DNA of 64,000 nt, from NCBI GenBank assembly GCA_045636425.1, contig JAZTXM010000013.1:86500-150499 (forward strand). Reading direction: 5' to 3'. Both the position numbers and the translations under genes were made by a program. Numbering within the stretch: position 1 is the first letter of the stretch; every line of letters starts with the position of its first letter. The stretch comes from Clostridia bacterium (GTDB taxonomy: Bacteria > Bacillota > Clostridia > UMGS1883). A model generated the notes under the pieces. That model saw only the letters and a list, made by a program, of their open reading frames with translations. It ran no database searches and was not told the origin of the DNA. Positions 27,735 through 46,687 of this stretch are shown in pieces.

Positions 27735-27786
27735 CTTCGGGCTGTAATATTGAGGATTTACTTGAAAATCCAATGAGTTGAGCACT
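27735..27786 (+). repeat. Truncated duplicate of the 3' end of the DUF3791-HTH gene (element-end module)
   Basis: 27735-27830 aligns to 38875-38962, covering ...NIEDLLENPM-stop and the downstream sequence. Confidence 0.55.
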
Positions 27787-27852
27787 TTTATGTATGATAA
27801 TCTTGTTTTCGTGAAAACAACAATCTCAACCTCTTTTCTTTGTTAATCCCCC

Positions 27853-28131
27853 TTAGTGCAGTAAGACTCGAACACCTGTTGTCTCAAACGAATTATTTTT
27901 GAAGCCTTTCAATTTGTCGGTCTTGAAGGGCGGCAGCCCATCTGCGACCTCCGCATTAAAATTCTCCTAAAAATAATCCGTTTGAGATGCGAGCAGTTTT
28001 AACAGTGGCAATTTTTTATAAAACAAGGAAAAGCCCGCAGGTAATACTTCCGTATTATCAAGGGATTTGACACAGTTTTAGGAGAAATTACCCTGTTAAA
28101 ACCAATAGGGGTTCGAGTCTTACTGCACTAA
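27853..28131. mobile_element. MITE-like 279-bp insertion bounded by 24-bp inverted repeats
   Basis: ttagtgcagtaagactcgaacacc at 27853-27876 versus ggggttcgagtcttactgcactaa at 28108-28131. This segment is absent from the otherwise homologous copy at 38962-38980. Confidence 0.4.
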
Positions 28132-28157
28132 CCAAGCCAAAAACAGGGAATTTTTCC

Positions 28158-28270
28158 CAGTAGATGTCAAATAGATGTCAAAACAGCACTTTTCAAAAAA
28201 AATTAAGAAAACGTAAAAACCGCCTAACCCTATTGGTTAAGCGGTTTTTAACTGGTGAGCCATCGGAGAT
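28158..28270. repeat. Copy of the tRNA-Lys-proximal element end (agatgtcaaa direct repeats, terminator, first 18 nt of the tRNA 3' end)
   Basis: About 95% identical to 46238-46350. The tRNA-derived portion stops after tggtgagccatcggagat and is followed by a 130-nt unrelated insert. Confidence 0.65.
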
Positions 28271-28463
28271 GTGTATGCTTTCGCATCCACCCTGCTTGAC
28301 GACCGTGAGCTTTGCTCACAGTACCCGTCTGCGCACCACGTTCGCTAAAAATATGCCACCGGCATATTTTCTTTACGCTCCGTGCCCTCTCAGGGTTCGA
28401 ATCTCCTATAATTTCTGCAAACAAAATTAAAAGAGATATCCTTGCGGACATCTCTTTTAATTT

Positions 28464-28563
28464 TGGTGAGCCATCGGAGATTCGAACCCCGGACAACTTG
28501 ATTAAAAGCTGTAAAAACAGCATGTTTAGACACATATGTTTTCCGTGCAAACCCCAATATGAT
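28464..28563. repeat. att site: exact 45-nt copy of the tRNA-Lys 3' half plus the 55-nt element left-end sequence
   Basis: 28464-28508 is identical to 46332-46376. 28509-28563 (ctgtaaaaacagcatg...caatatgat) recurs at 25326-25380. Confidence 0.7.
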
Positions 28564-29155
28564 GGGGGTTTACTTGTTATCCATTTTTATTGGTAATTAA
28601 GTTTTTTTAATACGGTAGATGTCAAAATAGATGTCAGATTGTAATTTCTCTTCTTGTACTTAGTCTTAATCATTCATAAAACATTCTTTGCATATTTCTT
28701 TTGCTTTTTCATACCAATCGTTCATATTTTTACTGCCTTATTTAGTAACTATAGTATATCACAAATAAGGCAAGGCTTCAATCATTTTTGTCCTAAAAAC
28801 GTTCGTTTTTAGGACTGTTGTTTTGTTCCAATGTTCCAAGTTTTTCTTCACTTTTTGAAAATTCTAAACCTCTTCTTGATCCTGCTCCATTTCCTATCTG
28901 ACCACCAATAGATTAAAAATAAAAGCAACATAATAAGCCAGAGCGATACACAAAAAATATTGATTACAATGATAGCAATGCCACTAAAAAAAGAATTACC
29001 TATGGCTGTGAATAGCCATTTTCTGCATAATAGAGTTAAGACAACTTTGATTTACTCATGACATCCCCCTTTCTCCTTCTTCGCGTTATAAACTGCTACT
29101 ATGACCTCAAGCAACGCCACAAGCACCAGTTTTATGTACTTCATATTCTTATCAT

Positions 29156-30091
29156 TTATATTTCACCACCCATATAGTAGATGTATTCTTCAATTTCTTC
29201 GGGAGAGAAGCCTTTTCCGAGAAGTTTGTCAATATCATCGGGAGAATAGCCCTGATAGCACGCTATTGATTTTAAATCCTCTATGTATTCATTTTTTGAG
29301 TAGCTTCTTCCCCATCCGTAGGAAGAGAATCCAAAATCCCACCAATTCTTTCCACTGTAGTAGCTATATTCAAAGTTTTCTTTTGTCAGTTTCCCGTCAT
29401 AGCCGATTTTAAGTATCTCCCCTTCCGCGACATTTACTTCTTCGTACTCTCCATTTTTAAGGTTGCTAAACAGCGGTGAATCTACAAGTGCTTTGTAGAG
29501 TATTTCGTCGGTACTGGCATAAACATAAAGCTTAAGCTTCGGGAAATGAAGAATTGATACAGGGGAATCTCCCTTTACGAGATAGAGATTATTTCTGTCA
29601 TCCAGTATTGAAAAGCTGAAGCTTCCTTCAACCTTTTCTGCCATGTATCTGATACTGTCAAAACAGATTCTTTTCTGACTTTCTATTAACTGTACCGCTA
29701 TGTAGGAATCCGTTTCGACTTTTGTTTTAGGAAGCTTGTACTTCTTTTTAAGTTCATCATCGTTATAAAGTACTCCGTTATGCGCAAGGGAAAACCTTGC
29801 ATTTTTTGTTTTCCCGAAAAAAGGATGATTATTATAGTTTCTTTTCTCACTTCCCTGCGTGCTATGGCGTGTATGCCCTATCAGTGCTTTCAGGTTATCG
29901 GAATGCTGAAAGTCAATTTTATTTGCTGCCTTTGCTTCTTTGATAATTCTGATTATTCCTCCGCTGACAAATGATATTCCCGTTGCATCCGTACCTCTTA
30001 CGGATGCGTGTTCTGCAAGGGAATTAGTAAGGTCAGACAATCCTTTAATATCTTTGTTACTGTAGTTTAAAAACCCGAATAATCCGCACAT
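29156..30091 (-). CDS. Class II (Ntn) glutamine amidotransferase-like protein
   Basis: N-terminal MCGLFG has the Cys nucleophile at position 2. The Ntn-hydrolase fold is about 230 aa, with an extra C-terminal segment of about 80 aa. Confidence 0.65.
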   Translation of the reverse strand: MCGLFGFLNYSNKDIKGLSDLTNSLAEHASVRGTDATGISFVSGGIIRIIKEAKAANKIDFQHSDNLKALIGHTRHSTQGSEKRNYNNHPFFGKTKNARFSLAHNGVLYNDDELKKKYKLPKTKVETDSYIAVQLIESQKRICFDSIRYMAEKVEGSFSFSILDDRNNLYLVKGDSPVSILHFPKLKLYVYASTDEILYKALVDSPLFSNLKNGEYEEVNVAEGEILKIGYDGKLTKENFEYSYYSGKNWWDFGFSSYGWGRSYSKNEYIEDLKSIACYQGYSPDDIDKLLGKGFSPEEIEEYIYYMGGEI

Positions 30092-31228
30092 TTACATTTC
30101 CTCCGTTTCTGTTTCAATTTCATTTACATACAATCTTTTTTGTTTCAGGTATTCGATAAGTTCTGCTTTCTTAGGTAGAATCTTCTGTACAAAGTCACTC
30201 CAGGACATATTTTCCATTTCAAGGTCTGCCATATGTATTGCATGGAAGCATATTTCGTCCACAAGCTGAAGAGTAGCCACAAACGTACTATAGCAAAGCG
30301 TGCCTCTGAATAATCTGAATTCTACCGTATTGGCATTTTCAAGATTGACTGCAACATACCTCCCCATATGCCTGTCCTTGGCTTTCTTATAGGTTTCTTC
30401 CGTTGTGGTAGAGATAGTTGCATATCTCGCCGCCCATCGATTCAGATTTTCAATTGTTCTTCTGCTGAATTTGACTATTTCGTTCCAGTGTTTTTCAACA
30501 AAGAATACGATTCTTCCGATAACTGCTTCCTGCTGTTCGTATGTTTTTCCGAAAGCCTCTCTGCTCACATGAATGTGCAATCCGCAGGTACTTGTCTGAT
30601 GTGACCTGTAGCCCAGGCGTATGGCTTTATCAAATACTTCGTGCCAGTTCATTTTGTTTATGTGATAGTCAAGGCTCATAGGGTGACTTACTATTTCAAA
30701 GCCATCGTCGATACTTCCGTCATGCTTACAATAGATGTGCTCGCCTGCATCGTTGGCAATATTAATGATTGTCTCTGCCTTATCATTGTCTTCCCCACCT
30801 CTGTCTATCTCCAATTCAACACCGAAAAATAAATTACCCGAGCCGTGGAAAATCGGTTCGGGTTTATAACTGTAATTTTTTATTGCTCCGCTTATAAGCT
30901 TCTGATAGCAGTCATAGCAATATGGATAATCGCTGTCATCGTTTTCGTAATACGCGGAATCGTTATGTATAAGTCTGCCACAGTCTTCGCAGTTGGTATA
31001 GTTATAATCGTAGCAATGTCTGCAAAGGACAATATTTTCATTACCTTCTGCATCTTCACGCCAGATTCTTTCATTACAGTTCATACATACTACCGTTTTT
31101 TCTTCAAGGCAATCTGTACAGTAGATTTTTCCTTCGAATTCGTGATAGTTCTCTCTTTCAAGAATTGCCCCGCAACAAGAGCAGGTTAAGTTTCCGTTTT
31201 TCATTTTTGTTCTCTCCTTAGTATTCAT
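30092..31228 (-). CDS. Amidoligase (glutamine-synthetase-like, Amidoligase_2-type) with N-terminal multi-CxxC zinc ribbons
   Basis: Four CxxC pairs in the first 110 aa. Then GVELEI (E.E metal site) and TCGLHIHVS (H.H motif), as in GS-like amidoligases. Adjacent to the GATase on the same strand with no gap. Confidence 0.6.
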   Translation of the reverse strand: MNTKERTKMKNGNLTCSCCGAILERENYHEFEGKIYCTDCLEEKTVVCMNCNERIWREDAEGNENIVLCRHCYDYNYTNCEDCGRLIHNDSAYYENDDSDYPYCYDCYQKLISGAIKNYSYKPEPIFHGSGNLFFGVELEIDRGGEDNDKAETIINIANDAGEHIYCKHDGSIDDGFEIVSHPMSLDYHINKMNWHEVFDKAIRLGYRSHQTSTCGLHIHVSREAFGKTYEQQEAVIGRIVFFVEKHWNEIVKFSRRTIENLNRWAARYATISTTTEETYKKAKDRHMGRYVAVNLENANTVEFRLFRGTLCYSTFVATLQLVDEICFHAIHMADLEMENMSWSDFVQKILPKKAELIEYLKQKRLYVNEIETETEEM

Positions 31229-31529
31229 AGTTCATTAGCATAGTTGAGTGTGTTTTATCATCGATTACAAATACTTTTGCTGTAGTAACCGGTGTTATGT
31301 TTAACACATACTCCTTTTCATATTCAGGTACTTCCTGAGTATGAATTATTACTTGCTTCCCGTCTTTTTCAGACAAAGAAAAAACCTGCAGATAATCTTT
31401 ATCTACAGGCAGGTTGTGTATCATCTCCCACATAATTACTTGCTGCGGAATCGGGATATTCTCCGCTACATCTCGTGTTATGAATTTTTGATTTTTAAAA
31501 ATATTTACACCTCCGACATTCAGTTTCAT
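31218..31529 (-). CDS. Hypothetical protein (first gene of the amidoligase operon)
   Basis: 103 aa. Overlaps the amidoligase start by 11 nt. Confidence 0.35.
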   Translation of the reverse strand: MKLNVGGVNIFKNQKFITRDVAENIPIPQQVIMWEMIHNLPVDKDYLQVFSLSEKDGKQVIIHTQEVPEYEKEYVLNITPVTTAKVFVIDDKTHSTMLMNYEY

Positions 31530-31786
31530 ATGTATGATATATATTTTTGGGACGTTAAAATCTGATTTAATTTATAACATAATATTAAAGATTTATACAC
31601 GTAACAATAAATTATAAAGGATTCATATAATCACTCACGGGAGAGCTGTGTAGTATATAAGCTATATAAGTATATAATTAAATAAAAAATAAATTCAATA
31701 CTCTTATTTAAGCATTGAATTACTATCTAAATCATTAAATTATATATTAACAAAATTGCGACGATTACATAGGAGGATATTAGATT

Positions 31787-32836
31787 ATGAATATACATAC
31801 TTTTGAATTAACTTCAATACTTACTAATGACAAATACTATAAAATACAGAAAGCTTTAAAAAATAAAGATAAATCCAAATGGAAATCCGAACGTAACGGT
31901 ATGCTATATTTTGGTTTACGTGAAAAAGGGATTTTAATTTATATGTTTATACTGAAGAAAAAGAACTACTACTCTTACCGCATTATATATAGAATATCCG
32001 CGAGAAGAGTCCTTGATAAGAATAATTATGTTGATCTTTTTGATTTACAACTATATGACGAATTGGAATTGGAAGCAAATCGACTTCTGTTTGAAAAAAG
32101 TAACCTTCTACCTAAACTGAACGAATGCGAACTTACCCGAATTGATTTTTGTTACAATGCCAGGCTTGAGAATCAGTATCAGGTTAAGGCATACATAAAG
32201 ACAATTAAAAACGGCTACATACCACCAAAACATTACGAGTTTCTCCTCTATAGCGAAACGGGCAAACGGTTTATTCCACCTAAAAATGACTTCACTTTTT
32301 CCAAAGACAACTATGTGGAGATTTCTATATACAACAAAAAGGCTCAGATGAAGCAAGACGACTACTACCCCAAAAGTGAAATTGACAGAGCTTCAAATAT
32401 AGTGAGAATGGAAATCAGATGTTATAAAAAACTAATCAAAGAGTATTGTGAGAAGCATAACATTAATTCCCTGCATCGCTTTATGGGATGCTGTGGTAAT
32501 TTGGGAAACGAGCTTTACAACAAGTATCTTTCTAAAATATCAGGCAGCGGCTGTATATATACTCTCAAAGAAACCAATCAGCGTATTGATATGAGTGAAT
32601 TCCGTAAAAAGGATATAACGCTGATGAAAGAATTTGTTAAGGACATAAATCTCCACGGAGCACCTGAAACTTTTGAAGTATATGAAAGAACATACAGTAA
32701 AGCGATATTAAAAAGAATGGTGGAACTGTTTGAAATAATTGATACAAGCTTTATAACATTACCTGTACGTGAGGCTAAATTGTTTGATAACGGTAAGCTT
32801 CCATCACCTTTAAAGTTGTATTATGAATTATGCTAA
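31787..32836 (+). CDS. Hypothetical protein (possible replication/mobilisation protein of the element)
   Basis: 349 aa, Lys/Tyr-rich. Precedes the Xis-like gene. No motif securely recognised. Confidence 0.35.
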   Translation: MNIHTFELTSILTNDKYYKIQKALKNKDKSKWKSERNGMLYFGLREKGILIYMFILKKKNYYSYRIIYRISARRVLDKNNYVDLFDLQLYDELELEANRLLFEKSNLLPKLNECELTRIDFCYNARLENQYQVKAYIKTIKNGYIPPKHYEFLLYSETGKRFIPPKNDFTFSKDNYVEISIYNKKAQMKQDDYYPKSEIDRASNIVRMEIRCYKKLIKEYCEKHNINSLHRFMGCCGNLGNELYNKYLSKISGSGCIYTLKETNQRIDMSEFRKKDITLMKEFVKDINLHGAPETFEVYERTYSKAILKRMVELFEIIDTSFITLPVREAKLFDNGKLPSPLKLYYELC

Positions 32837-32875: not shown

Positions 32876-33064
32876 ATGTTTGAAAACCCATACGATATCT
32901 TATCTCCCGAAGAAGCAATGGACGAACTTCGGATAGGGAAAAATTCTATTTACGAACTATTGAATTCAGGAAAACTTAAAGGATTTAAAGTAGGACGCAA
33001 CTGGAAGATTCCACGAAAATCTATAGACAAATATATTGACAAAAATATCAGAGAAAGCGAGTAA
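32876..33064 (+). CDS. Excisionase-like HTH protein (MerR/Xis superfamily)
   Basis: 62 aa; ...LRIGKNSIYELLNSGKLKGFKVGRNWKIPRKSIDKYI matches the HTH_17 / Xis signature. Confidence 0.55.
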   Translation: MFENPYDILSPEEAMDELRIGKNSIYELLNSGKLKGFKVGRNWKIPRKSIDKYIDKNIRESE

Positions 33065-33070
33065 ATAATT

Positions 33071-33769
33071 ATGAATAGTTTTGAAGTAATAAGATATTTA
33101 ACAGTACATATGCACGGGTACAAAAGAATCGGCAAAGAAAATGTATTACAGAAAGTTACCGCTACAGGATTCTTTGCGTTCCTTAATATCAACGGTGTCA
33201 GAAAAGATATAATCATAACAGCAAAACACTTTGCGGTTGAAATATCAAGAGTTGTTTTTATGTTACATTACAAAGAGAATGGCAAATTAGTCACAGTTCC
33301 GGTGTCTACAGAAGTAGAGTGGAATTTTTCAGAAGATGCAGACCTTGCTTATTGTGAGTTTAAACCTATTGAGGAACGTTTTCGAAAAATCACCGGAAGA
33401 AGAGTATATGCTGCAGCATTAACCCAGAAGGATTTTTTAACTGAAAAACAATTAAATGAAATCAATATTTTAGACGAGGTTGTTACGGCAGGTTATCCGG
33501 CAGGAGAATCAAGTACACATCACAAATTCCCTTTGTTTTCAAAAGGCTATGTTGCCTCTCTGCCGAAAGATGTTTTTGAAGACGGAGAAGGATTTGTTAA
33601 TATTTCTGCTATAGGAGGCTTCTCCGGTGCACCCGTATTTTTGAACAGCCCCGGTTTAAAGTTTCTTGGAGTTCTTGTAAGCGGTATAATGGAAGAAGAT
33701 TCTGATTCATCAGTGATGTGCAAGTATGTTCCCGCATATAAAATACTTAGGTTATTAGAACAGCAATAA
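33071..33769 (+). CDS. Trypsin-like (S1/S1C) serine protease domain protein
   Basis: TAKH (His), an Asp, and GGFSGAPVF (a GDSGGP-like Ser motif) in the canonical order. No signal peptide. Confidence 0.55.
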   Translation: MNSFEVIRYLTVHMHGYKRIGKENVLQKVTATGFFAFLNINGVRKDIIITAKHFAVEISRVVFMLHYKENGKLVTVPVSTEVEWNFSEDADLAYCEFKPIEERFRKITGRRVYAAALTQKDFLTEKQLNEINILDEVVTAGYPAGESSTHHKFPLFSKGYVASLPKDVFEDGEGFVNISAIGGFSGAPVFLNSPGLKFLGVLVSGIMEEDSDSSVMCKYVPAYKILRLLEQQ

Positions 33770-33945: not shown

Positions 33946-34131
33946 ATGAGCAAGCAATTCTATACTATGAAAGAACTTAGAGAAATAATGCCAATAGGCA
34001 CTAACAACTTGTATAACTTGGTTCATTCTGCCGAGTTCCCATCAATCACAATAAATCGCAGAATTATAATTCCAATAGCTGAATTTAATGAATGGATAAA
34101 ATCATCTGCAGGAAAGAAATTCAAAGTATAA
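33946..34131 (+). CDS. xis: Excisionase-like HTH protein (Xis)
   Basis: 61 aa; MKELREIMPIGTNNLYNLVHSAEFPSITINRRIIIP. Immediately upstream of the integrase. Confidence 0.6.
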   Translation: MSKQFYTMKELREIMPIGTNNLYNLVHSAEFPSITINRRIIIPIAEFNEWIKSSAGKKFKV

Positions 34132-34197
34132 CAAAATCACTTGTCCCCTTGAGGCAATTTGCTTCAAGGGGCTTTTTTTATTTTAGGAGGAAAGATT

Positions 34198-35335
34198 ATG
34201 AGTAAAAGAGGAAATAACGAAGGCAGTATTGTAAAACGTAAAGACGGACGTTGGCAAGGAGCCGTAACAATCGGAAGAAATCCTGACGGCACTCAAAAGA
34301 GGCAGTATGTCTATGGCAAAACAAGAACTGAAGTTTCAGAAAAGATTAACTCTATTCTGTTTGATATTAATAATGGAACATATATTGATAAAAGTCAGAA
34401 TCCTACAGTAAAACAATGGCTTTACACCTGGCTAACCACTTATAAGAAAAACAGTATTAAGCCTAGGACGCTGGACCAGTATACAAGCATCATAAGATAC
34501 CATCTTATTCCGGAGATTGGCGACATACGATTAGTTGATCTCAAGGAAACCAATTTGCAAAGATTCTATAACAGGCTCTCAAAAGAAGGACTATCTCCAA
34601 GGACTATCCAGCTTATTAATACCGTACTATACGGTGCAATAAAAAAAGCTATAAAGTGCGGTCTGGTAATAAGAAATGTATGCGATGCTGTTGAGCTACC
34701 AAAACAACAGAAGAAAGAAAGAAAGGCGTGTATTAACTCCTGAGGAACAGGAAAGCTTACTGGAGGTTTTAAAAGAATCAGAATATGGTGCTATGTATAT
34801 CTTCGCTCTTTTCACAGGATTAAGAAAAGGCGAAGTCCTTGCTCTTACCTGGTCCGATATAGATTTAGCTAATCACTTAATTAACGTAAATAAAACTCTA
34901 GGGCGTGTAAATACATATGTTGATACAGGAAATAAGACTCAGCTTGTAGTAAGCACCCCAAAGACTCAAACGAGCATGAGAGTGATTCCTATCATCGAAT
35001 CTCTGATTCCACTTCTTGAAAAGCAGAGAAAACTTACTCAAGGCAGCCAGTCAAATCTTGTCTTTCCTTCGGACGCTGACACTTACATCGACCCCGGTAA
35101 CTATAACAGACTTTTCTACAAGCTTGTGAAGAAAGCCGGAATTCCCAAGGCTCACCCCCATTCACTCAGACACAGCTTCGCAACACGAGCGCTGGAAGCC
35201 GGACTGGACCTCAAAACAACGCAGGAGCTTTTGGGGCATAGTTCAATTGACATCACCGCCAATCTGTACACCCACGCCCTGTTGGAGCACAAGCAGAAAG
35301 AAATTAAAAAGCTTGAATCCGTGTTTAATTTATAA
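34198..35335 (+). pseudogene. int: Tyrosine integrase (phage/ICE type), frameshifted in an A-rich run
   Basis: The N-terminal SAM-like / arm-binding part (34198-34743) and the catalytic part (34676-35335; HSLRHSFAT, LGHSSIDITANLYTH) are in different frames. They overlap around AGAAAGAAAGAAAGG at 34712-34726. Confidence 0.75.
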
Positions 35336-35441: not shown

Positions 35442-37355
35442 GTGCTCTTACCTATGAAGCCTAGCTATATGAATATTGAACCTATGAACTCAACCATCAT
35501 CCATGCAAAAGATTTGACGAAGATAAGCAATGGAAAGTATTTTGTCAAAGATGATTGCACCTTTTTCAAAAGTCCGCATAGCAGCCGAAAAATTTGTAAT
35601 TTTTATGTCAGAGAACTTAAATTCAACCGAAATTTTGAAACCGTAATCAGTTTTACTGTAACCTTAAAGCTAGTAGATGAATACGGCATCTATGATGAGG
35701 AAAACACTTTTCCGATATGTTATTATGATGAACCGATTGGCTGGTTAAGATATGGTTTTGACCCATCTTCTTTTCATATATACGAGCAAAAAGCTCACTT
35801 TAACTTGCATATGAAAGAAATTTTCAATTTGATATGTTCAGAAGAATACTGCAGTTGCGAAGAAGCAATCCTTGGTTGGGACTTTGATACTGTAAATTCC
35901 AATAAACCGTTGGCATTTAGGAATACATACGATTTCAACAAAATCGAAAACCCATTTGATTCAGTATATCAGCCTTTGGATGAAGTTACAAAAGAAGAAG
36001 TCCCTGAAGAAATGTTATTCAAATATATGAAACTCGCAGATTTAAAAGTTTCAGTTCCTTTAATGTCATTTATGTTGCTTGCAGCATTAAATAGCTTTGA
36101 ACTGTTAGGCACTAATACGAGACCAGGTTTCGTTGTGGCAATCACCGGTAAAACAGAAGAAGTAAGACGAAAGACTGCTCTCTTCTTCACAAATCTTTTC
36201 AAAAGAGACTCTACATTCAATAAAAACGAATATAAGCTATTTCACATTACGCAATCTGATACGCTGACAGACATCCGTTTTAAATCCGAGTATGCTAAAG
36301 ATTGTGTCCTTATTGCTTTTGAACCCGACAAGAGGCATTTGAATTATTTAATTAATGATTTATATAAAACAAATGTAGTTGATAAAGAACATCCTATTCG
36401 TAGTCTCTGTTTATTTACAGCGGATAACATTGATGATATAAAGGCAGACAATATAATCAATGTGCATCTCGACGAGAATTTTAATCTGGATCGAGTTATT
36501 AAATTCTTTTCACCTGAAAAAAACAAGCGACAAAAGAAAGATAAATTAATTGAAAGTATCTATTACTATATAAACGCACTTATAGGCAGGCTATTAGATA
36601 ACGGTCATTTTATAAACGAACAATTTCAAAACCATAAGTTGATTTTTGAAGCATCACATAGGATTTCTGATTTTTCTGATTCTGCTTACACTGCATCTGT
36701 TTTACTTAGTTTTGCCATTAATATGTATAGATATTATTCTGCAGGTACGGGCTCTCTCCTTTTGTTTGAGAAAATTGATAAAATACTTATTCAAACTACA
36801 AAAAATTCTTTTCCTAAAAAAGGAGAATCAACTGAAGATGATTTTTCTGATGCAAGGAAAGTATGCACTATACTCGACGATTATTTCTACAAAAACAAAG
36901 ATGAAATCTCTAAAGTCAAACAATCAGAATATTCAGGCCCGGTATTAATGTGGTATGACGAAAAGTATTTATATATTAAAGGAAAAAGTCTGACCAAAGT
37001 ACTTAATAACAGCGGGACTAAATCAAAATTTTCTGTAAGTGTAAAGAAAAGTATGGCCGAGAAAGGCATTATTGAATCTTACAAAAAAGAAAATGGACAA
37101 TATGAATATAGCATCAATCTGCAAAAACAAGTGTATAATAGCTTAAAGACAAAAGGTCGATTTGTTGCCTTTAACAGAGAGAAGTGCAGAGAATACGATT
37201 TGTTCAAAAAGATTGAGGAGCATCGTATAGTTCCGGAGCCAGCAGTAGAAGCAACACCTCTTTCAATTCCGTTATCACGGATTAGAGGAAGCCACTATTT
37301 GGATTTGAATAACTCCGATATAGAGATAGTTTTTGAGACGAGAGGAAAAGAATAA
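35442..37355 (+). CDS. Large hypothetical protein (637 aa), element cargo
   Basis: No recognised motif. Lys/Asn-rich. Confidence 0.35.
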   Translation: MLLPMKPSYMNIEPMNSTIIHAKDLTKISNGKYFVKDDCTFFKSPHSSRKICNFYVRELKFNRNFETVISFTVTLKLVDEYGIYDEENTFPICYYDEPIGWLRYGFDPSSFHIYEQKAHFNLHMKEIFNLICSEEYCSCEEAILGWDFDTVNSNKPLAFRNTYDFNKIENPFDSVYQPLDEVTKEEVPEEMLFKYMKLADLKVSVPLMSFMLLAALNSFELLGTNTRPGFVVAITGKTEEVRRKTALFFTNLFKRDSTFNKNEYKLFHITQSDTLTDIRFKSEYAKDCVLIAFEPDKRHLNYLINDLYKTNVVDKEHPIRSLCLFTADNIDDIKADNIINVHLDENFNLDRVIKFFSPEKNKRQKKDKLIESIYYYINALIGRLLDNGHFINEQFQNHKLIFEASHRISDFSDSAYTASVLLSFAINMYRYYSAGTGSLLLFEKIDKILIQTTKNSFPKKGESTEDDFSDARKVCTILDDYFYKNKDEISKVKQSEYSGPVLMWYDEKYLYIKGKSLTKVLNNSGTKSKFSVSVKKSMAEKGIIESYKKENGQYEYSINLQKQVYNSLKTKGRFVAFNREKCREYDLFKKIEEHRIVPEPAVEATPLSIPLSRIRGSHYLDLNNSDIEIVFETRGKE

Positions 37356-38310: not shown

Positions 38311-38923
38311 TGCAAAAAGTTGCCTTGCCTGTATGTTTGATTATACAATAAACGATTGCAAGCTTGAAAGTGATTGGATTGCATCACTTTTTATGACTAC
38401 AGGCTATGCACAAAAGTTTGAAACTGGTAATCCCGCTATTATTTCAGGAATGTCAGGAATCGAACTCGGAAAAGCAATCGTAAAAAAGGCCTATAACAGA
38501 AAGGATGCCCCCGAAGCAAATTTCCGTGAAGACCGTTCTCCCGAATATTGGGCAGGTTGGGCTTTGGCAGAATATCAGTGGTTTTCAGGTCGCATATTTA
38601 AAGATATCTTTGAACGTATTCCGCTTTCAAAAATCATCAATATGTATTCTGTTTATCATGAAATGGATATAAGCCAGTTTATAGATTCAATGGAAAAGTT
38701 CTATAACGAAACAATTCTTGAAACCAAGCTTAAAAGAATTCGTGAAAACCGAGGTGTTTCTCAATCAGAACTTGCAAAACTTTCAGGTGTTAAACTTCGC
38801 TCTATCCAGATGTATGAGCAGAAGGTTAATGACATAGATAAAGCACAAGGACATACATTATATAAAATCTCAAGAGTCCTCGGATGTAATATTGAGGATT
38901 TGCTTGAAAATCCAATGGGTTGA
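38276..38923 (+). CDS. DUF3791-like protein with C-terminal XRE HTH
   Basis: C-terminal HTH (LKRIRENRGVSQSELAKLSGVKLRSIQMYEQ). Its 3' end is part of the repeated element-end module. Confidence 0.45.
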   Translation: MTHAYSELYLSDAKSCLACMFDYTINDCKLESDWIASLFMTTGYAQKFETGNPAIISGMSGIELGKAIVKKAYNRKDAPEANFREDRSPEYWAGWALAEYQWFSGRIFKDIFERIPLSKIINMYSVYHEMDISQFIDSMEKFYNETILETKLKRIRENRGVSQSELAKLSGVKLRSIQMYEQKVNDIDKAQGHTLYKISRVLGCNIEDLLENPMG

Positions 38924-38980
38924 GTACTTTTTATGAACGATAATCTTTATTTCGTGCACAAAACAGAGGATTTCTCTTAG

Positions 38981-39075
38981 CAGATGTCAAATAGATGTCA
39001 AAACTGCATTTTTTTAAACAAAGCAAAAAAGTAAAAACCGCTTAACCATATTGGTTAAGCGGTTTTCCAGTGGCA
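38981..39075. repeat. Third copy of the element-end module (agatgtcaaa twice, terminator hairpin, degenerate tRNA-core remnant)
   Basis: cagatgtcaaatagatgtcaaaac...aaaaccgcttaaccatattggttaagcggtttt, then ccagtggcaaaaaag in place of aactggtgagccatcggag. Confidence 0.55.
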
Positions 39076-39180
39076 AAAAAGATGCAACGTTTTTTTAACG
39101 ATATACTTGCTGCCACTCGTGGGATATATTTGCTTTAAAAACTCAGCCATTTATAACAATGTTTTCTTGCCATAGCACCA

Positions 39181-42100
39181 CTAATTCTCGTCGTCATCTT
39201 CCCTTCTCCGAGTTTCTTGTTCAAGTTGATGATGTCTAATATTAAGTTTTGCCTCTCTGACATATCCATCAGAAATAAGACGAAGTGTTTCTGCATACTT
39301 TGCATATCCTATTGATTCAGCGGATTCTGCAAGTTTCTTATATTTTTTAGCAAGTTGGAATTCCGGCTTCCCTTCGGGATCAATCCATACAACTCCTCGC
39401 TGATTAAAAGTACCAATCCTATATCCCACACGCATTTCTTCATTTTCAATCTTATTGAGTTCTCTCATGATAAAATCATCAATAAGACCATTCTCAAGTT
39501 TACGCGCATAAGAAAGGCCATTACCGATTGTTTGCTGAACTATAGCTTCTCGATCTTCTACCTTAGCCCAAGCCTTGCAATAGTTAACCCATTCGCAAAA
39601 ATCGTTTTCGTTGTAGTTTCCATCCCAATCTGTTCCTGGAATCACACAAAAATCGTGTAGAATTTTCCAAAGTCTCTTTGCCATATGTTCCGAGATGTTT
39701 TCTTCGTGTGTTTCAGAATGTCTTTTCTTATAGAATAGTCTTATCAGTTCGCAGAAAAACATTGGCTCATTTGCCAATCGATATCTCAAAGCTAATGGTT
39801 TTACTTTGGAATATTCATCAAGCCAAGATAAATATATAAGTTCTACATCAGAAATTTCCTCTATGCTTATACTCCTCGTCTGCTGTAATAATTCAATCAA
39901 ATTTCTAACAGCATCGGGATCCAACCTATCACCGCTTTCAGTGATTGCAGCTTGAGTTAACACTTCGTGTAATTTGTCATGAGAAATACTACAATTTTCA
40001 GCCGTGATACCAAAAAGATTAATAGCCGTAGCATATCGTTTTTGTTCAACCAACTGCCCCCACACATAGTTTAAATCAACTTCATCATCCAAGCCAAGAC
40101 GTGGAACAACGATAGAATTCCAATACAAATTGCTCTGCTCGCCAAGTATGTCTTTGACAATTTCAAACAAACGCATAGAGGGACGAAGACATGAAAGAAC
40201 CCAAGAAACATAATCCAAACTATAAGTTTCCAACTCTGTTTGAATTATCGCATCATAATCATTGGCTATTATATATCCGTTAATTATTGATGCAAAAATC
40301 TCCTTACTCAACCTGGACTCATAACACATTTTTAAAAGCGCTTTTATGTCTTCTTCTTTTAGTTGCTTACCTAAGTTTTGAGCAATCCATGCTTCGTTGT
40401 TGAGTTCTTTTGCAAATTCTACTACTGAATCTATTCCGTACGAAACATATATTTCATAAACTGAGGTTTCTTGCTTATTACACTTAGCTTCCCATTTTGT
40501 ATGAAATTCACCCTCATTGTCATAATCAAAATATCCTGGTTCATACAATCTTCTATATATATATCTAATATCCGTAGGAGCAACTTTTTCAATAGTAGTA
40601 TCTAGTAACTTCATCATGAAATCGTCCAATTCATCCTCTGTGTTATGAACTAACCATTCTTTTTGATTTACAAGCTGTTTCCAAAATGGATATTTTTTCG
40701 AGTCATCCCATTCCATTGCCTGTTCTGATATTAAAGATAAATACTCTACGATTGTATCACGGTCCATATCATCGTAATATGATAACAGATCAACCATTTT
40801 AGAATGGTCATCTTTAGCTAACCCTAACGCTAAGTGTGAATAATATCGGTACAAATCTAAAATATCTTCATCAGGAGTTCTAACTTCTTTCGGGGAAATT
40901 GAAATAATATATCGAGGTTGATGTGTATCTCCGGTGTAACGTGTAGTATGTGGAAGTAGCCCTTTGATCACTATCCAAGCAATGTCAGGACATTCTTGTT
41001 GTAATGCTTTAATTGCATTCTTCTGCTTTTCTTTTGATGCTAAAGTCTGTATATGCCACGGGAGCATAATGCTAATAATAGAATTAATCGGTGTATTAGA
41101 TGAATTGGTCTTATCAAATTTCAATTTTGAAATCTGACCTAATATTCTAATGCATTTTACAAAATATTTTTTATCCCAGGCCAAGCCTTCCAAAGACCAC
41201 AATATTGAACAAATGAAATTTCTGGAAAACAACAAATTATCGCCATTCTTCGGAAATAAAGATTCTATATTTTGAGGAACATTAACAATTTGCCTCTCCA
41301 AACAAGATAAATACTCTGTTGGGTGAATTTCAGCAACAGTCGGCAGATGTGAATTTAAACTCATCCACGTCGAACTACTCGCTTCAGAGAATAAGTTGCG
41401 AATCAACATTATAGCTTCATAATTAACTGTTTCTGAAGAACACGACAATTGCGTTCCAAACAGATTGCAAATCATTGCAAGGCCATGTATTATTCCATTT
41501 CGTAATGCTTCAGAATGAACAAACGGTCCAGACTCTGGCACTAGGATACTAAAATCACCATTATCCTGAATTCGTTTATCTTTTTCTTTAAGAACCTCTT
41601 GAGAGGTTTCAAAGAATTTTTTTATATCATTTTCAAAATATAATTTTGAACAAATTTTGATAATTGCTCGTCTATGATTAACATACCATAGTCCTTGTGA
41701 AAAAGAAACATTTGGGTTTGGCTGCAAAGAATTCTCTTGTATTATTTTTTGGATTTCCAAATAACTTCTTCCTAAAAACGACTCCAAAAATTTCTTATCA
41801 AAATCATTTTTTTCATTCCAGGATCCTACCAAAGCCAACTTTGCCCAAATGGAATCAATATCGAAATCAAGGGGTTCCGGCATAACATCGGATATCGCTA
41901 ATAAGTTTTCGAATTTTTGCTTGATATACTCTGGAATATTATCCAATGTAATATGTGCGGCCGCTTTATCACAGCTCGCTGCATAATCAACGAGTTGAGC
42001 CCAAACCGATACAGCGTTTTCCTTACTATTTGAAGCAATTAATGCATGAATTAAAAATTTATTTATGCTACTCTCATAATCCAAGTCAAAGACAAGAATT

Positions 42101-42705
42101 GTAAAGACTTTACAGAATTCCCACAATTGCTCGTCAGTAATATCTTGATCATTATTAGCCTTTTTTAAAAGAACTTTGATGGCATGCAACTTTTCTCGGT
42201 TGGTGCCATTAGAGTATCCCGGTCTATCGATTCTGTCAACGAAATCGTTCGCATCTAATGCACCGTTTGCTTGATCATAAATAAAGCGCAACGAATTTGC
42301 GTTCGCAACTGATCCCGAAATCAATACTATTTTATCAGTTCGCTTATCAAACATCGGTTTGTTAAAATCACTCCAAGCAGAAATAACAACATCCTTAAAT
42401 GTAGCATTGTTTTCGGTAAGAGTTATCCCATGCTTGATTTGACACACTAACTTTGCAGAATATGTATCAAATGACGAAAATAAAACGATATCATCAGTAT
42501 CATATCCCGATCTTTTAGCTTGAAAAAGCACCGATGTTATGGGCAAATTCAGCAAAGGCGAAAATCCATCTACCAACAACGTCAACAAAAATGCGGCTTG
42601 GACACGATGTTCAAAATCCACCCCTCCACCGCCAGTTGAAAAAGGGTTGCTGAGCGCTGATACCGTTGCCTTGTTGTGTTTTTCTTGGTTTTCTTTTGTT
42701 ATCAT
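39181..42705 (-). CDS. Large (1174 aa) uncharacterised protein: possible N-terminal PD-(D/E)xK-like motif plus a long alpha-helical repeat region
   Basis: N-terminal STGGGGVDFEHR...YDTDDIVLF...AKLVCQIK has the D...D...QxK spacing of restriction-endonuclease-like folds. The remaining roughly 900 aa are helical with no NTPase motif. Confidence 0.45.
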   Translation of the reverse strand: MITKENQEKHNKATVSALSNPFSTGGGGVDFEHRVQAAFLLTLLVDGFSPLLNLPITSVLFQAKRSGYDTDDIVLFSSFDTYSAKLVCQIKHGITLTENNATFKDVVISAWSDFNKPMFDKRTDKIVLISGSVANANSLRFIYDQANGALDANDFVDRIDRPGYSNGTNREKLHAIKVLLKKANNDQDITDEQLWEFCKVFTILVFDLDYESSINKFLIHALIASNSKENAVSVWAQLVDYAASCDKAAAHITLDNIPEYIKQKFENLLAISDVMPEPLDFDIDSIWAKLALVGSWNEKNDFDKKFLESFLGRSYLEIQKIIQENSLQPNPNVSFSQGLWYVNHRRAIIKICSKLYFENDIKKFFETSQEVLKEKDKRIQDNGDFSILVPESGPFVHSEALRNGIIHGLAMICNLFGTQLSCSSETVNYEAIMLIRNLFSEASSSTWMSLNSHLPTVAEIHPTEYLSCLERQIVNVPQNIESLFPKNGDNLLFSRNFICSILWSLEGLAWDKKYFVKCIRILGQISKLKFDKTNSSNTPINSIISIMLPWHIQTLASKEKQKNAIKALQQECPDIAWIVIKGLLPHTTRYTGDTHQPRYIISISPKEVRTPDEDILDLYRYYSHLALGLAKDDHSKMVDLLSYYDDMDRDTIVEYLSLISEQAMEWDDSKKYPFWKQLVNQKEWLVHNTEDELDDFMMKLLDTTIEKVAPTDIRYIYRRLYEPGYFDYDNEGEFHTKWEAKCNKQETSVYEIYVSYGIDSVVEFAKELNNEAWIAQNLGKQLKEEDIKALLKMCYESRLSKEIFASIINGYIIANDYDAIIQTELETYSLDYVSWVLSCLRPSMRLFEIVKDILGEQSNLYWNSIVVPRLGLDDEVDLNYVWGQLVEQKRYATAINLFGITAENCSISHDKLHEVLTQAAITESGDRLDPDAVRNLIELLQQTRSISIEEISDVELIYLSWLDEYSKVKPLALRYRLANEPMFFCELIRLFYKKRHSETHEENISEHMAKRLWKILHDFCVIPGTDWDGNYNENDFCEWVNYCKAWAKVEDREAIVQQTIGNGLSYARKLENGLIDDFIMRELNKIENEEMRVGYRIGTFNQRGVVWIDPEGKPEFQLAKKYKKLAESAESIGYAKYAETLRLISDGYVREAKLNIRHHQLEQETRRREDDDEN

Positions 42706-43113
42706 TAATTACCACCTATTTTTTTCGTACAGAATGTTTTCGATATCAAAGATAATTCGAATTTTGGTTAACCATCGTTGTATTTATAACTCTACGCTTA
42801 AAACATCTTTCTTATAACAACAGCTTGCTCCGGAATTATAACAGGGGTTATTCCTTCACCTCTATCATATCCATAATAAGAATGGCTGAAGAGTAAGTTT
42901 GATTCAAAAGCAAATAAATTGATTTTATAATGCACGAAGTACAATTCATGAGCTGTAGGCTTGATTCATGAAATCCTTGATTTCAATCAACCCCACCAGC
43001 CAATTCATTGTTTTTAAGCTTTACTTGAAATCTTTATAGAATCAGTGAACAATTTAGATGCCACTAATTTTAGCAATAATTCGTGTTAAGTTAGAAATAA
43101 AAAATATTTAACC

Positions 43114-43818
43114 CTAAAACATAATACATATCACCATAACAACTATTGGTAGTACAAACAAAAATAGTTTTAATATCCAATTGGCTATAATTTTCATTTG
43201 AAGAAGTATAGGTGATATTTCGCTTAAGTAGTTTCTAATTTTTTCTTTATCTTCATCACCACCTGCATCAAAAGCAGAAAGTTTTTTAAACCAACGAATC
43301 TCCTTTTCTTTGCATAACGACTTGACTGTGTTAAAAAAATCAATATCATTTCTAAATTCAACATTATCCACTATCTCGTTATATTTAGAAATAAATGAAT
43401 CCAATTGCTCTTCTTTCAAACTTCTTTTTAGAGTTTTTAAATCATTTATAGCCTTAGTTATCCTCTCAATTCTCTGTGCATAATTAGCATTACTGTTTAT
43501 CAATGAATACGCAAGCATAATTACAGACAAAACAAGGCCAAAATATTCACACATTTTACTATTATACCATTCAAAATATAGTGCAGTCAAAGAATGAATA
43601 ATTAAAAAAATGCTATAATACACAAGAATAAAATCAGACATCTTTTTACTATCAGATAGTCTTTTTTCCATGTTTATGTAATTACTAAGTGTTGTTTTAC
43701 AAATCCTTCTCCATACTATTAAATTTTCATAATCTGTTGTCATTTGTATATCTCTCCGTTTCGCATTTTCGACTTTTTTGACAATCTTTATACAAAGACT
43801 GTATAATCTGGATGCCAT
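43114..43818 (-). CDS. Membrane protein with two central TM helices, a helical segment and a C-terminal TM (abortive-infection-effector-like; hypothetical)
   Basis: TM helices FILVYYSIFLIIHSLTALYF, FGLVLSVIMLAYSLI and ILKLFLFVLPIVVMVICIMF. The start is uncertain; the ORF is open to 43899 and overlaps the upstream gene. Confidence 0.4.
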   Translation of the reverse strand: MASRLYSLCIKIVKKVENAKRRDIQMTTDYENLIVWRRICKTTLSNYINMEKRLSDSKKMSDFILVYYSIFLIIHSLTALYFEWYNSKMCEYFGLVLSVIMLAYSLINSNANYAQRIERITKAINDLKTLKRSLKEEQLDSFISKYNEIVDNVEFRNDIDFFNTVKSLCKEKEIRWFKKLSAFDAGGDEDKEKIRNYLSEISPILLQMKIIANWILKLFLFVLPIVVMVICIMF

Positions 43819-43835
43819 GCTTTTTCCACAGTTGT

Positions 43836-44354
43836 TTATTCTACATGTTCTGCTTTGTTTTTTACAAGTCCTATAATCGCCGAAATAATAACTACGCACT
43901 CATATATCACACCGCCCATTGATGCAACTGCCATGTTATAAATAATGCACAAAGGCGATTTAATAAACATTGCCCGTCTTGTGTTCTGCGGATTTGAAAA
44001 AGAAAGACTCACAGTTGATGTAACAAGTCCCGCTATTAAAAACAACGAATAAATATTTTCCCAGGCAAGCATACCTGCAACTGCAATAAGAACAGAGGTT
44101 ATAATTACTTCAGCTTTGCTTTCACCTTGTTTCTTGTTACGAAAAGCAAAGTATAAACATATAACCGCAGACAAAAAATTAAGTGCAGTTGCCGTGGGAG
44201 CTGAAATCAAAAAATAATGTACAGAAAAAGTTAATGCCGTCACACACTGGGAAACTATAATCCCAAACTGAGTTTTTCTTTGATATGAAACAAAACCCAA
44301 TATTACAGCAACAATTCCCAGCGCCTGTCCAATTATATAAGTTAAATTATCCAT
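43836..44354 (-). CDS. YgjV-family inner membrane protein
   Basis: 172 aa with 5-6 TM segments. The N-terminal YIIGQALGIVAVILGFVSYQRK resembles YgjV. Confidence 0.5.
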   Translation of the reverse strand: MDNLTYIIGQALGIVAVILGFVSYQRKTQFGIIVSQCVTALTFSVHYFLISAPTATALNFLSAVICLYFAFRNKKQGESKAEVIITSVLIAVAGMLAWENIYSLFLIAGLVTSTVSLSFSNPQNTRRAMFIKSPLCIIYNMAVASMGGVIYECVVIISAIIGLVKNKAEHVE

Positions 44355-44599
44355 AGTAATATCTCCCTTTTCAATATCCTCCAGTACACCCTATATAAAT
44401 GACATAAGGCGTAGGTACCACTAATCAACGCCTCCCTTGTGTAAAGGGAGGTATTTTATAATTTCGACTTTTTTCGACGCTCTTCATAGGCTTATCTTAA
44501 GTTTGAGCTAAAAACAAATAAATTGACTTTATAATGCACGAATTGCAATTCATAACTGTAGGCTCGATTCATGAAATCCTTTAATTCAAACTATCCCTA

Positions 44600-45823: not shown

Positions 45824-46331
45824 TCTAACCAGCCTCCTTTTGATTATATTATACCATATTTTTAGAAAATTGCAAGTTAAGGGGATAAAATTATTTAATT
45901 TATATATTTTTCGCCTCTTATAAGTTGTTTAATTGACACTTTTGAAATTGATAATGAGTTGAAAAGAGATTATTTCTTTATTTGTTTTTAAATGTAGAAT
46001 AAGTTAGTGAGCTATGAATATATCATTCTTATAGATGATATCCCCATAGCTCACTATTATAATCCTCGATGATGTTTAGTGCATATAAACTCAATTTTTA
46101 GTAATAACACTTTTATTAATTTATACACTACTTTCTAAATTAATTCTGACTAACTTTTGACTACAAATAGGAAATATCCATTTGCCAATAAAAGCCCTTA
46201 CGCTTCCCTTAACAAAGCCAAAAACAGCAAATTTTCTCAGTAGATGTCAAATAGATGTCAAAACGGCACTTTTCAAAAAAATAAAGAAAACGTAAAAACC
46301 GCCTAACACTAATGGTTAAGCGGTTTTTAAC

Positions 46332-46407
46332 TGGTGAGCCATCGGAGATTCGAACCCCGGACAACTTGATTAAAAGTCAAGTGCTCTGCCGACTGAGCTA
46401 ATGGCCC
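46332..46407 (-). tRNA. tRNA-Lys (UUU)
   Basis: Cloverleaf with encoded CCA; anticodon loop cuUUUaa. Target of the att copies at 28464-28508. Confidence 0.85.
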
Positions 46408-46412
46408 ATATA

Positions 46413-46489: not shown

Positions 46490-46526
46490 ACATAAACTAT
46501 GCCGGAATGCAACTCAGGTGGAAAAG

Positions 46527-46604: not shown

Positions 46605-46610
46605 ATAAGT

Positions 46611-46687
<77 letters not shown>

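Follow-up and report, generated by a model that had tools for sequence, protein, structure and literature searches.

The window analyzed here, a stretch of 64,000 nucleotides from contig JAZTXM010000013.1 of a Clostridia bacterium (UMGS1883 lineage; assembly GCA_045636425.1, positions 86,500 to 150,499 of the forward strand), carries on its minus strand a compact group of genes built around an Amidoligase_2-type ligase and a class-II glutamine amidotransferase (GATase). We regard it as almost certain that these genes form a four-gene cassette on an integrated mobile element in a gut Clostridia genome, and that the invariant core of the cassette is a two-enzyme amide-bond machine. The features of the cassette are as follows.

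31218-31529, minus strand: gene 1, DUF960 protein (Pfam PF06124) with an alpha+beta fold
30092-31204, minus strand: gene 2, zinc-ribbon plus Amidoligase_2 enzyme, 370 aa from the second ATG (the mechanically called open reading frame, ORF, starts at 31228)
30908-31183, minus strand: N-terminal zinc module of gene 2, three CxxC...CxxC units, LIM-like by motifs, alignment and Foldseek
30095-30847, minus strand: predicted catalytic domain of gene 2, with a carboxylate-amine ligase fold like those of glutamine synthetase (GS) and GCS2, from invariant residues and Foldseek
29156-30091, minus strand: gene 3, stand-alone class-II GATase of the N-terminal nucleophile (Ntn), Cys1 type, 311 aa, from GATase_6/7/4
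29052-29144, minus strand: gene 4, 30-codon ORF, from its same position in relatives and codon-position differences
31530-31786, no strand assigned: AT-rich divergent intergenic region, the presumed operon promoter, from promoter-like hexamers

A first-pass annotation of the sequence had described a three-gene operon, and the three co-directional minus-strand ORFs that it named are in place (31218-31529, 103 aa; 30092-31228, 378 aa; 29156-30091, 311 aa), but it had overlooked the small conserved ORF that follows them; in this clade the operon consists of four genes, the 30-codon ORF included. Given the strong AAGGAGAG ribosome-binding site ahead of the second ATG (31204) of the amidoligase ORF, and given that close homologues are essentially all 368-371 aa long, the true start of gene 2 is most likely this second ATG rather than the one at 31228, so that a 13-nt gap, and no overlap, would follow the DUF960 gene. 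At the other end of gene 2, the TAA stop directly abuts the GATase ATG, and a GGAGG lies 8 nt before that ATG, inside the 3' end of the ligase gene; these features are consistent with the translational coupling of ligase and amidotransferase that had been proposed. Upstream of the operon, minus-strand promoter-like hexamers occur at 31607->31579 and 31698->31669, in a number not above shuffle expectation. No riboswitch or leader RNA was recovered there by Rfam at the gathering score (the sub-threshold matches, to miRNA and sRNA families, are chance-like), nor was any stable leader structure, the fold z-score of 0.67 being no better than that of shuffles.

The ligase encoded by gene 2 matches Amidoligase_2 (PF12224) at 31.6 bits against a Pfam cut-off of 22 (E = 1.9e-7, residues 164-325), its homologues carry the same precomputed annotation, and among PHROGs it falls into phrog_16683 (function unknown; E = 5e-89). 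Both motifs from which a GS-like amidoligase fold had been proposed are present (GVELEI, residue 136; GLHIHVS, residue 216; numbering of the 378-aa ORF). In an alignment of 38 diverse sequences, 36-96% identical to the window protein, the invariant residues (370-aa numbering) include E130 and E132 of the first motif and H210 and H212 of the second, as well as D162, S164, E170, R248, R249, N287, E295 and R297; by analogy with the GS fold, the conserved acidic, His and Arg residues may bind metal or ATP. The AlphaFold model built from these 38 homologues has a mean predicted local distance difference test score (pLDDT) of 91.5 and a predicted template-modeling score (pTM) of 0.75, and its best Foldseek matches in the PDB are YbdK/GCS2 (1tt4, 1r8g), GS (9n4x, 5dm3), GmaS (9qur) and Dop/PafA, with probabilities of 0.9-1.0 and TM-scores of only 0.27-0.38. 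The fold proposed from the motifs is thus recovered in the model, and from the low TM-scores the catalytic domain is predicted to be a distant branch of the GS/GCS2-type fold. Searches of the PDB by sequence, with a single sequence or a profile, found no relative of the catalytic domain; only the zinc fingers matched.

Those zinc fingers occupy the N-terminus of the ligase, where four CxxC pairs had initially been counted; the actual number is six CxxC motifs (C16, C37, C48, C69, C80, C104), which form three CxxC...CxxC units with 12 Cys, all of them invariant or nearly so in the alignment of diverse homologues. A LIM-type zinc-finger match in Pfam (26.9 bits), a profile search of the PDB that matches LIM proteins, and Foldseek matches of the N-terminal ~100 residues of the model to LIM domains (PINCH LIM4-5 at probability 1.0) all point the same way. 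The ligase family is large, with 5,885 homologues in a 90%-clustered database and 10,238 clusters at 50% identity, 1,882 of them at E <= 1e-30. Some long relatives (P0141, P0178, P0266, P0252, P0132/P0133/P0149) carry additional BspA-type leucine-rich repeats (LRR) or Xrn1-type SH3-like domains, and other extensions among them consist of as many as seven or more extra zinc ribbons or of ~360-390-aa N-terminal arrays of an unrecognised ~100-aa repeat.

The description of gene 3 as an Ntn-type amidotransferase with the motif MCGLFG holds: the motif forms residues 1-6, placing the nucleophile Cys directly after the initiator Met, and the protein scores above the Pfam cut-offs for GATase_6 (PF13522; 48.1 bits vs 27, E = 1.5e-12), GATase_7 (36.7 vs 25) and GATase_4 (24.8 vs 23), so that the profile searches proposed as a check recover both the Amidoligase-type and the GATase-II families above curated thresholds. 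Cys2 is conserved in at least 98% of 59 aligned sequences (the window protein and 58 homologues), and Arg75, Asn105-Gly106 and Asp128, likewise conserved among the 58 homologues, align with R73, N101-G102 and D127 of Bacillus subtilis PurF, which are, respectively, the glutamine-binding Arg, the oxyanion Asn-Gly and the glutamine-binding Asp. All of the class-II catalytic residues are thus conserved. The first ~180 residues align with the glutaminase domains of GlmS, PurF and AsnB (NCBIfam), and the true glutaminase domains of these enzymes are the closest characterized relatives; the NCBIfam scores nevertheless remain far under the equivalog cut-offs (71.6 vs 381, among others) because no synthase domain follows. 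The protein comprises a ~250-aa glutaminase domain and a poorly conserved ~60-aa C-terminal tail, and a fused acceptor (synthase) domain of the kind found in PurF, GlmS, AsnB and GltB is absent by Pfam, NCBIfam and alignment. As a stand-alone protein, it therefore lies outside every characterized amidotransferase enzyme family.

The two smaller genes flank this pair. Gene 1, first noted simply as a small protein, is a clear member of the DUF960 family of Firmicutes mobile elements (SCC elements, plasmids), sharing the fold and C-terminal -EY common to that family; it matches PF06124 over model positions 1-94 of 94 (87.4 bits vs 25, E = 9.5e-25). Its AlphaFold 2 model (pLDDT 83.8) is a small alpha+beta domain, the best PDB match of which is 2R41 (TM 0.77), an Enterococcus faecalis structural-genomics protein without assigned function; no PDB relative was found by sequence. 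The protein ends ...STMLMNYEY-COOH, and all 30 aligned homologues share this end point, E102 and Y103 being invariant among them. A terminal EY is also found in DUF960 proteins without a nearby amidoligase, from C. butyricum, Cetobacterium and a 1784-aa C. difficile fusion, so it is a family-wide feature of DUF960 and not specific to the pairing, and the -EY end was ruled out as a signature of an amidoligase substrate. Elsewhere, DUF960 genes mostly do not lie beside an amidoligase; the linkage seen here is limited to certain zinc-finger amidoligase clades. In the C. difficile plasmid pHSJD-312 (NZ_MG973074.1), DUF960 forms the extreme C-terminal domain of the 1784-aa protein, which ends ...SSEY, and in this plasmid, as in one from Cetobacterium, the DUF960 gene is closely followed by a gene for an SbcC-like 'AAA family ATPase'.

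Gene 4 (29144->29052) starts 12 nt past the GATase stop and encodes MKYIKLVLVALLEVIVAVYNAKKEKGGCHE, predicted to be a hydrophobic helix. In ~24 of 60 genome loci the same ORF is found at this place, with peptide identity down to ~40%, a consensus of MKYIKxxLxALIEVxVExYNxKK and a conserved acidic residue at position 13. Across 16 copies, pairwise differences at codon positions 1, 2 and 3 number 965 : 637 : 1620; from this third-position excess, the ORF is concluded to be a translated gene under purifying selection.

Across loci, the invariant core of the cassette is the ordered pair of a ligase followed by a Cys1 Ntn enzyme, the DUF960 gene and the 30-codon ORF being independent, clade-specific additions. 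Among 75 genome or metagenome loci, all from metagenome-assembled genomes of gut Clostridia (Oscillospiraceae, Acutalibacteraceae, Ruminococcus and similar), the GATase gene lies immediately downstream of the ligase gene in 65, and the remainder are mostly contig ends, truncated contigs or pseudogenes. DUF960 is upstream in 14, all of the closest clade, and an HTH_17 regulator lies near the cassette in 23; an S45-like protease is present in only 7, which, together with a position outside the shared DNA block, rules out the protease and HTH_17 pair as the core of the system. In 79 IMG/VR viral contigs of 5-165 kb, the GATase adjoins the ligase in nearly all homologues with at least 47% identity, and a DUF960 gene is a direct neighbor in 11 loci, with 7 others having it ~4.7 kb downstream. 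More distant viral and phage versions (among them Marvin gp105/gp106, podophage ctgrD200 and Methylophilales phage MEP402) likewise have a ~300-aa ORF directly downstream of the ligase; such ORFs start MC(I/V/L), carry NxDGAG(F/L)M and give a weak GATase_4 signal in 6 of 10 tested. The order of ligase and GATase is never reversed and the two are never fused, as expected of an Ntn enzyme that needs a free N-terminal Cys.

Pairs of this kind had been described as known from phages and plasmids by comparative genomics and as almost entirely uncharacterized, and this agrees both with their presence in mycobacteriophage Marvin, marine podophages and IMG/VR contigs and with a literature that consists of a 2009 prediction only (Iyer, Abhiman, Burroughs & Aravind, 2009). 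Neither an experimental characterization of an Amidoligase_2 and GAT-II pair nor a published enzyme assay for any Amidoligase_2 member was found in the searchable literature. As relayed in the citing passages of PMC11318856 and PMC10580990, the 2009 prediction envisaged a modification of the cell wall to block superinfection, or else a secondary metabolite (Iyer et al., 2009). The cassette shares with the pairs predicted there (among them phiEco32, Marvin gp105/gp106 and OM43 phages MEP401/402) the same families, the same order and residence in phages or mobile elements. It differs in that its ligase has a triple zinc-finger, LIM-like N-terminus and a fixed length of ~370 aa, in that DUF960 is added upstream and the 30-codon ORF downstream, in that its GATase is nearer the PurF/GlmS type (GATase_6/7) than the YafJ/EgtC-like GATase_4 proteins of distant phage pairs, and in that it resides on small integrative islands of gut Clostridia and not in a phage genome. 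The analysis accordingly confirms and refines a known prediction and reveals no new principle; what is new are the fixed LIM-like triple zinc finger, the recurrent linkage to DUF960, the 30-codon ORF and the role of the cassette as principal cargo of very small integrase-primase elements.

The mobility of the cassette is apparent at the DNA level. Identity to the closest loci is 88-89%, although only over 29043-31550, a block that runs through the 30-codon ORF, whereas the adjoining backbone either drops to ~66% or shows no relation, so that the cassette passes from one element backbone to another as a single block. Elsewhere it forms the principal load of ~7 kb elements with HTH_17, an integrase, a D5-type primase, a small resolvase and little else, while phage copies of the pair lie in early or accessory regions. 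The pair fills about one third of the coding capacity of the ~7 kb elements, which implies strong selection for what it does, probably competing with other elements or manipulating the host.

Several relatives deserve separate mention. In a clade of ~50% identity, inverted repeats (ATTAGGGTACACCCTAAT; CCAATAGGGT...ACCCTATTGG) lie ~130 nt past the GATase stop, directly upstream of a small serine recombinase gene (loci L010, L011, L020, L029, L035-L041, L050-L052, L060, L063, L066, L068); they look like a res-like site, so the cassette may be invertible or resolvable there. The conserved stretch that these repeats create after the GATase gene had been considered as a possible peptide and was ruled out as such, and the repeats are absent from the window. 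Clostridioides phage AR1086-1 (OR397124.1, 4677-6866) encodes a 370-aa amidoligase followed by an RlaP RNA-repair nucleotidyltransferase with no GATase, preceded by a DUF1653 protein, and with KptA (RNA 2'-phosphotransferase) ~4 kb away; the ~130 kb C. difficile phage-plasmids H28-H30 share this arrangement, which hints at an RNA-related role for the amidoligase of that branch. Within the phage collection, MT839723.1, a 6.6 kb 'Bacteriophage sp.' scaffold from human feces, comes closest, at 49% identity and 96% coverage; unannotated and unverified, it contains an 826-aa ORF besides two of 330 and 302 aa that take the places of ligase and GATase, and in size it resembles the small integrase-primase elements that carry the cassette. 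If this scaffold comes from a virus-like-particle preparation (a source absent from the record), such small elements might be packaged as satellites.

As to what the pair does, our preferred but tentative explanation is a split, glutamine-dependent and ATP-driven amidotransferase that acts on the carboxylate of a macromolecule in the manner of MurT/GatD. The GATase would hydrolyze glutamine on its N-terminal Cys and pass ammonia to the ligase, which, like GS, would activate a substrate carboxylate with ATP as an acyl-phosphate and convert it to a carboxamide (X-COOH + Gln + ATP -> X-CONH2 + Glu + ADP + Pi). The substrate would be a macromolecule, a macromolecule-bound precursor or something membrane-proximal, candidates being a cell-envelope precursor, as lipid II is for MurT/GatD, or a protein carboxylate; a macromolecular substrate is suggested by the zinc-finger module here and by the LRR and SH3 fusions in relatives. 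DUF960 and the 30-aa hydrophobic peptide might then serve as clade-specific adaptors or membrane tethers, and the element would gain by altering the susceptibility of its host to competing phages or elements, through superinfection exclusion or counter-defense. That the two enzymes form one functional unit is supported by their abutting stop and start codons with an internal ribosome-binding site, by the constancy of their pairing and order, and by the transfer of the cassette as a block. The explanation accounts for the 1:1 pairing, the gene order and the PurF/GlmS-like character of the GATase, and it is compatible with the published idea of a cell-wall modification directed against superinfection. 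The neighbors of the cassette match the defense candidates PDC-S45, PDC-S01 and SLATT, a conflict-related setting in which the role in conflict or anti-defense raised by the first-pass annotation may be envisaged.

Precedents for glutamine-dependent peptidoglycan amidation exist in MurT/GatD and in AsnB/LtsA. In Staphylococcus, Streptococcus and Mycobacterium, MurT/GatD amidates lipid II by means of a Cys4 zinc-ribbon ATP ligase and a separate glutaminase, encoded by adjacent genes. The combination of a zinc-ribbon ligase, a separate glutaminase and adjacent genes recurs here, although the resemblance is at the level of mechanism only and does not amount to membership: MurT has a Mur-ligase fold as opposed to the GS/GCS2-like ligase of the cassette, GatD is a class-I (triad) GATase as opposed to a class-II Ntn enzyme, and MurT/GatD is a housekeeping system whereas the present pair is mobile-element cargo. 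The cassette lies outside MurT/GatD, Pup and any characterized amidotransferase family, the defining features of each having been looked for and found lacking.

A number of points weigh against a split amidotransferase. The analysis shows the gene content, the fold, the conserved catalytic residues, the strict pairing and the residence on mobile elements; that ammonia is handed over, that ligase and GATase form a complex, what the substrate is and which role the pair plays are inferred. To our knowledge, characterized class-II amidotransferases have their glutaminase fused to the synthase, and stand-alone class-II proteins such as EgtC are amidohydrolases; ligase-GATase fusions were not found in the ten long homologues scanned with Pfam, five of which were also inspected by eye. 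The best structural matches of the ligase include gamma-glutamyl ligases (YbdK/GCS2, GmaS) besides GS. Related amidoligase subfamilies pair with a gamma-glutamyl cyclotransferase (GGCT) and not with a GATase, which points to gamma-glutamyl chemistry over ammonia delivery. The C. difficile phage version does without a GATase and lies beside RNA-repair genes. Finally, a search against the models of PADLOC-DB 2.0 (E <= 0.001) returned no defense match for DUF960, the amidoligase or the GATase, only for their neighbors.

Several of these points feed the chief rival, which we consider possible though doubtful: a make-and-break pair for gamma-glutamyl (or other aminoacyl) groups, in which the ligase would act on a peptide or small molecule, either adding glutamate to it or joining an amine to a gamma-glutamyl carboxylate on it, while the Ntn enzyme, as a gamma-glutamyl amidohydrolase or 'thiol peptidase', would process or remove the linkage, the product being a peptide-like metabolite or a transiently gamma-glutamylated intermediate. 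Models exist in EgtA/EgtC (ergothioneine) and PuuA/PuuD (putrescine), each of which joins a GS/GCS-type gamma-glutamyl ligase with a GATase-type gamma-glutamyl hydrolase, EgtC being a class-II Ntn enzyme. The likeness lies in a GS/GCS-fold ligase encoded together with a stand-alone GATase-like hydrolase; both systems, however, sit in longer pathways with intervening enzymes, whereas here two enzymes alone are conserved, and they lack a zinc-finger module and are related to the present pair in sequence only at the superfamily level. YbdK/GCS2 and gamma-glutamylmethylamide synthetase are among the top structural neighbors of the ligase, the GATase stands alone without a synthase domain as the hydrolase EgtC does, its conserved residues bind a gamma-glutamyl moiety and would suit a hydrolase as well as a glutaminase, and the Pfam description of PF12224, which we take to name the partner a 'GAT-like thiol peptidase', would agree. 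GGCT, with which other prophage amidoligases pair, also cleaves gamma-glutamyl groups; the GGCT-partnered amidoligases, however, belong to PHROG 2443 and the present ligase to 16683. A ligase and a hydrolase acting on one bond would moreover constitute a futile cycle unless further enzymes took part, and none is conserved nearby, while abutting genes and universal 1:1 pairing would rather be expected of two subunits that make up a single enzyme.

A second family of explanations turns on the tagging or maturation of a protein or peptide, Pup-like or akin to ribosomally synthesized and post-translationally modified peptides, with DUF960 or the 30-aa peptide as substrate, the ligase modifying or conjugating it, and the Ntn enzyme as a deamidase or processing enzyme; we judge it unlikely. 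Dop and PafA appear among the structural matches of the ligase, and the pupylation system offers further parallels in a GS-like fold, an adjacent small-protein gene and the idea of deamidation followed by ligation; yet the TM-scores to PafA/Dop are only ~0.27-0.33, the partner enzyme in pupylation is a second GS-like enzyme (Dop) where here it is an Ntn GATase, and no proteasome genes are present. Pup is disordered with a GGQ/GGE end, whereas DUF960 is a compact folded, 2R41-like domain that ends in -EY. The invariance of this EY among the DUF960 homologues would suit a substrate, as would the recurrence of DUF960 beside or near the pair in the closest clade and in viral contigs, the purifying selection on the 30-codon ORF with its acidic residue kept at position 13, and the protein-binding nature of LIM-like, LRR and SH3 modules. 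Against this, the terminal EY is found throughout the DUF960 family, also where no amidoligase is present, and most loci with the enzyme pair lack DUF960, just as most lack the 30-codon ORF, the presence of one not being tied to that of the other. A related and slightly less probable proposal is that the pair forms a hitherto unrecognized mobile-element pathway for post-translational modification, in which the LIM-guided ligase would amidate or conjugate a specific protein carboxylate with ammonia or glutamate supplied by the Ntn partner; the target might be the -Glu-Tyr end of DUF960, the conserved acidic residues in the 30-aa peptide, or else a protein of the host or of a phage. If true, such a mark would turn an activity involved in conflict on or off, and bacteria would have a counterpart of the chemistry of tubulin tails or Pup, achieved with a different enzyme pair.

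Modification or repair of nucleic acids is more improbable still; here the ligase would attach a group by an amide linkage to a base in DNA or RNA, or to tRNA, so that host nucleases are evaded or countered. Zinc ribbons can bind nucleic acids, the amidoligase of AR1086-1 keeps company with RlaP and KptA, and in podophages the pair lies close to replication or RNA polymerase genes. The zinc module, however, best matches LIM protein-binding fingers, and AR1086-1, lacking a GATase, may represent a different system. The suggestion of nucleobase modification made in the first-pass annotation finds no support: when phage homologues were checked for flanking DNA-modification genes, none was seen in Marvin, AR1086-1, ctgrD200 or MEP402, no adjacent DNA-modification, glycosylase, kinase or hypermodification genes occur in any context inspected, and the small islands are devoid of packaging or polymerase genes that would call for modified DNA. 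Lastly, a host housekeeping pair (a GS or GlmS/PurF paralogue) that lies near the tRNA by chance is effectively excluded, for although the N-terminal region of the GATase aligns with GlmS and PurF, its scores fall far below the equivalog cut-offs with the synthase domains absent, the genes lie between attachment-site repeats together with an integrase, and the cassette moves among unrelated backbones and is present in phage genomes.

Amidoligase_2 with GAT-II is among the most widespread gene pairs of phages and mobile elements without assigned function, with ~10,000 clusters in this clade alone, and it recurs in mycobacteriophages, in marine phages and in Clostridia of the human and animal gut. 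The compact four-gene version is a clean construct: its structural models are confident, its catalytic residues are defined, and it brings two further proteins that are candidates for accessories or substrates. It could settle for the family the choice between glutamine-dependent amidation, gamma-glutamylation and protein tagging.

The residence of the cassette on an integrative element, as had been proposed, is borne out by a 45-nt attachment-site (att) repeat of tRNA-Lys and by integrase and excisionase-type genes between its two copies, which enclose 17.8 kb of inserted DNA.

28464-28508, minus strand: att copy, an exact 45-nt direct repeat (100% identical) of the tRNA-Lys 3' end, which bounds the region on the operon side
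46332-46376, minus strand: the other att copy of the direct repeat, inside the intact tRNA-Lys gene (46332-46407, within a tRNA cluster at 46332-46782)
33946-35335, plus strand: recombination module, an HTH_17 excisionase-like gene (phrog_66) and a split tyrosine integrase (Phage_int_SAM_3, Phage_integrase)

The half of the region that holds the operon (28.5-38.9 kb) contains two HTH_17 excisionase-type genes, the tyrosine integrase, a trypsin-like protein, a DUF3990 gene and an HTH_3 repressor-like gene. The integrase (34159-35335, plus strand) consists of two overlapping ORFs on which Phage_int_SAM_3 and Phage_integrase separately fall; the frameshift lies near 34715-34731, in an A-rich stretch coding for KKERK, and a tblastn search with an intact homologue switches frame at residue ~175, so the split may reflect a pseudogene, a sequencing error or a programmed slip. 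At 32876-33769 (plus strand), an HTH_17 gene (62 aa) is followed by the 232-aa trypsin-like protein, which matches the PADLOC candidate single-gene defense family PDC-S45 (E = 4.6e-26) and phrog_7688; this pair lies divergently beside the cassette in its closest relatives (L001-L006). The other half (39181-45823, minus strand) looks like a defense-gene cluster, with a 1174-aa protein (phrog_18693, weak DUF626_VIII match), a SLATT-domain protein at 43114-43899 (RTasSLATT, E = 3.7e-20), a 172-aa ORF and a PDC-S01 AAA_14/DUF4143 ATPase at 44600-45823 (E = 1.5e-136). For two island ORFs on the plus strand, 31787-32836 (349 aa) and 35442-37355 (637 aa), neither Pfam nor PHROG nor PADLOC gave a match; the 349-aa protein is also encoded close to the cassette in loci L005, L013 and L038.

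Partial copies of the att site and its flank at 28123-28270 and 38943-39088, together with repeated TAGATGTCAAA motifs, identify the region as a composite of at least two accreted elements. At this tandemly accreted tRNA-Lys insertion site (intervals 28123-28270, 28464-28508, 38943-39088 and 46203-46376), the flank, ~130-150 nt long with a terminator-like hairpin, is present in three diverged copies, an extra 18-nt partial att copy lies at 28253-28270, and four copies of a TAGATGTCAAA(A)YAG motif, next to each junction, may be arm sites for the integrase or excisionase (Xis). The 3' end of the HTH_3 gene (38882-38931) is also found at 27740-27789, outside the current island. The ~190 nt between att copies (28271-28463) contain a GGTTCGAATCTCC T-loop-like motif on the plus strand at 28394-28406, and a strong hairpin lies at 28421-28467; ARAGORN and Rfam detected no tRNA or RNA family at threshold in this interval, which may be the remnant of a degraded element or a tRNA fragment. 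In the putative defense half, a ~100-nt direct repeat (42894-42994 and 44498-44597, 86-88% identical) precedes two different minus-strand genes and may be a duplicated promoter or regulatory region.

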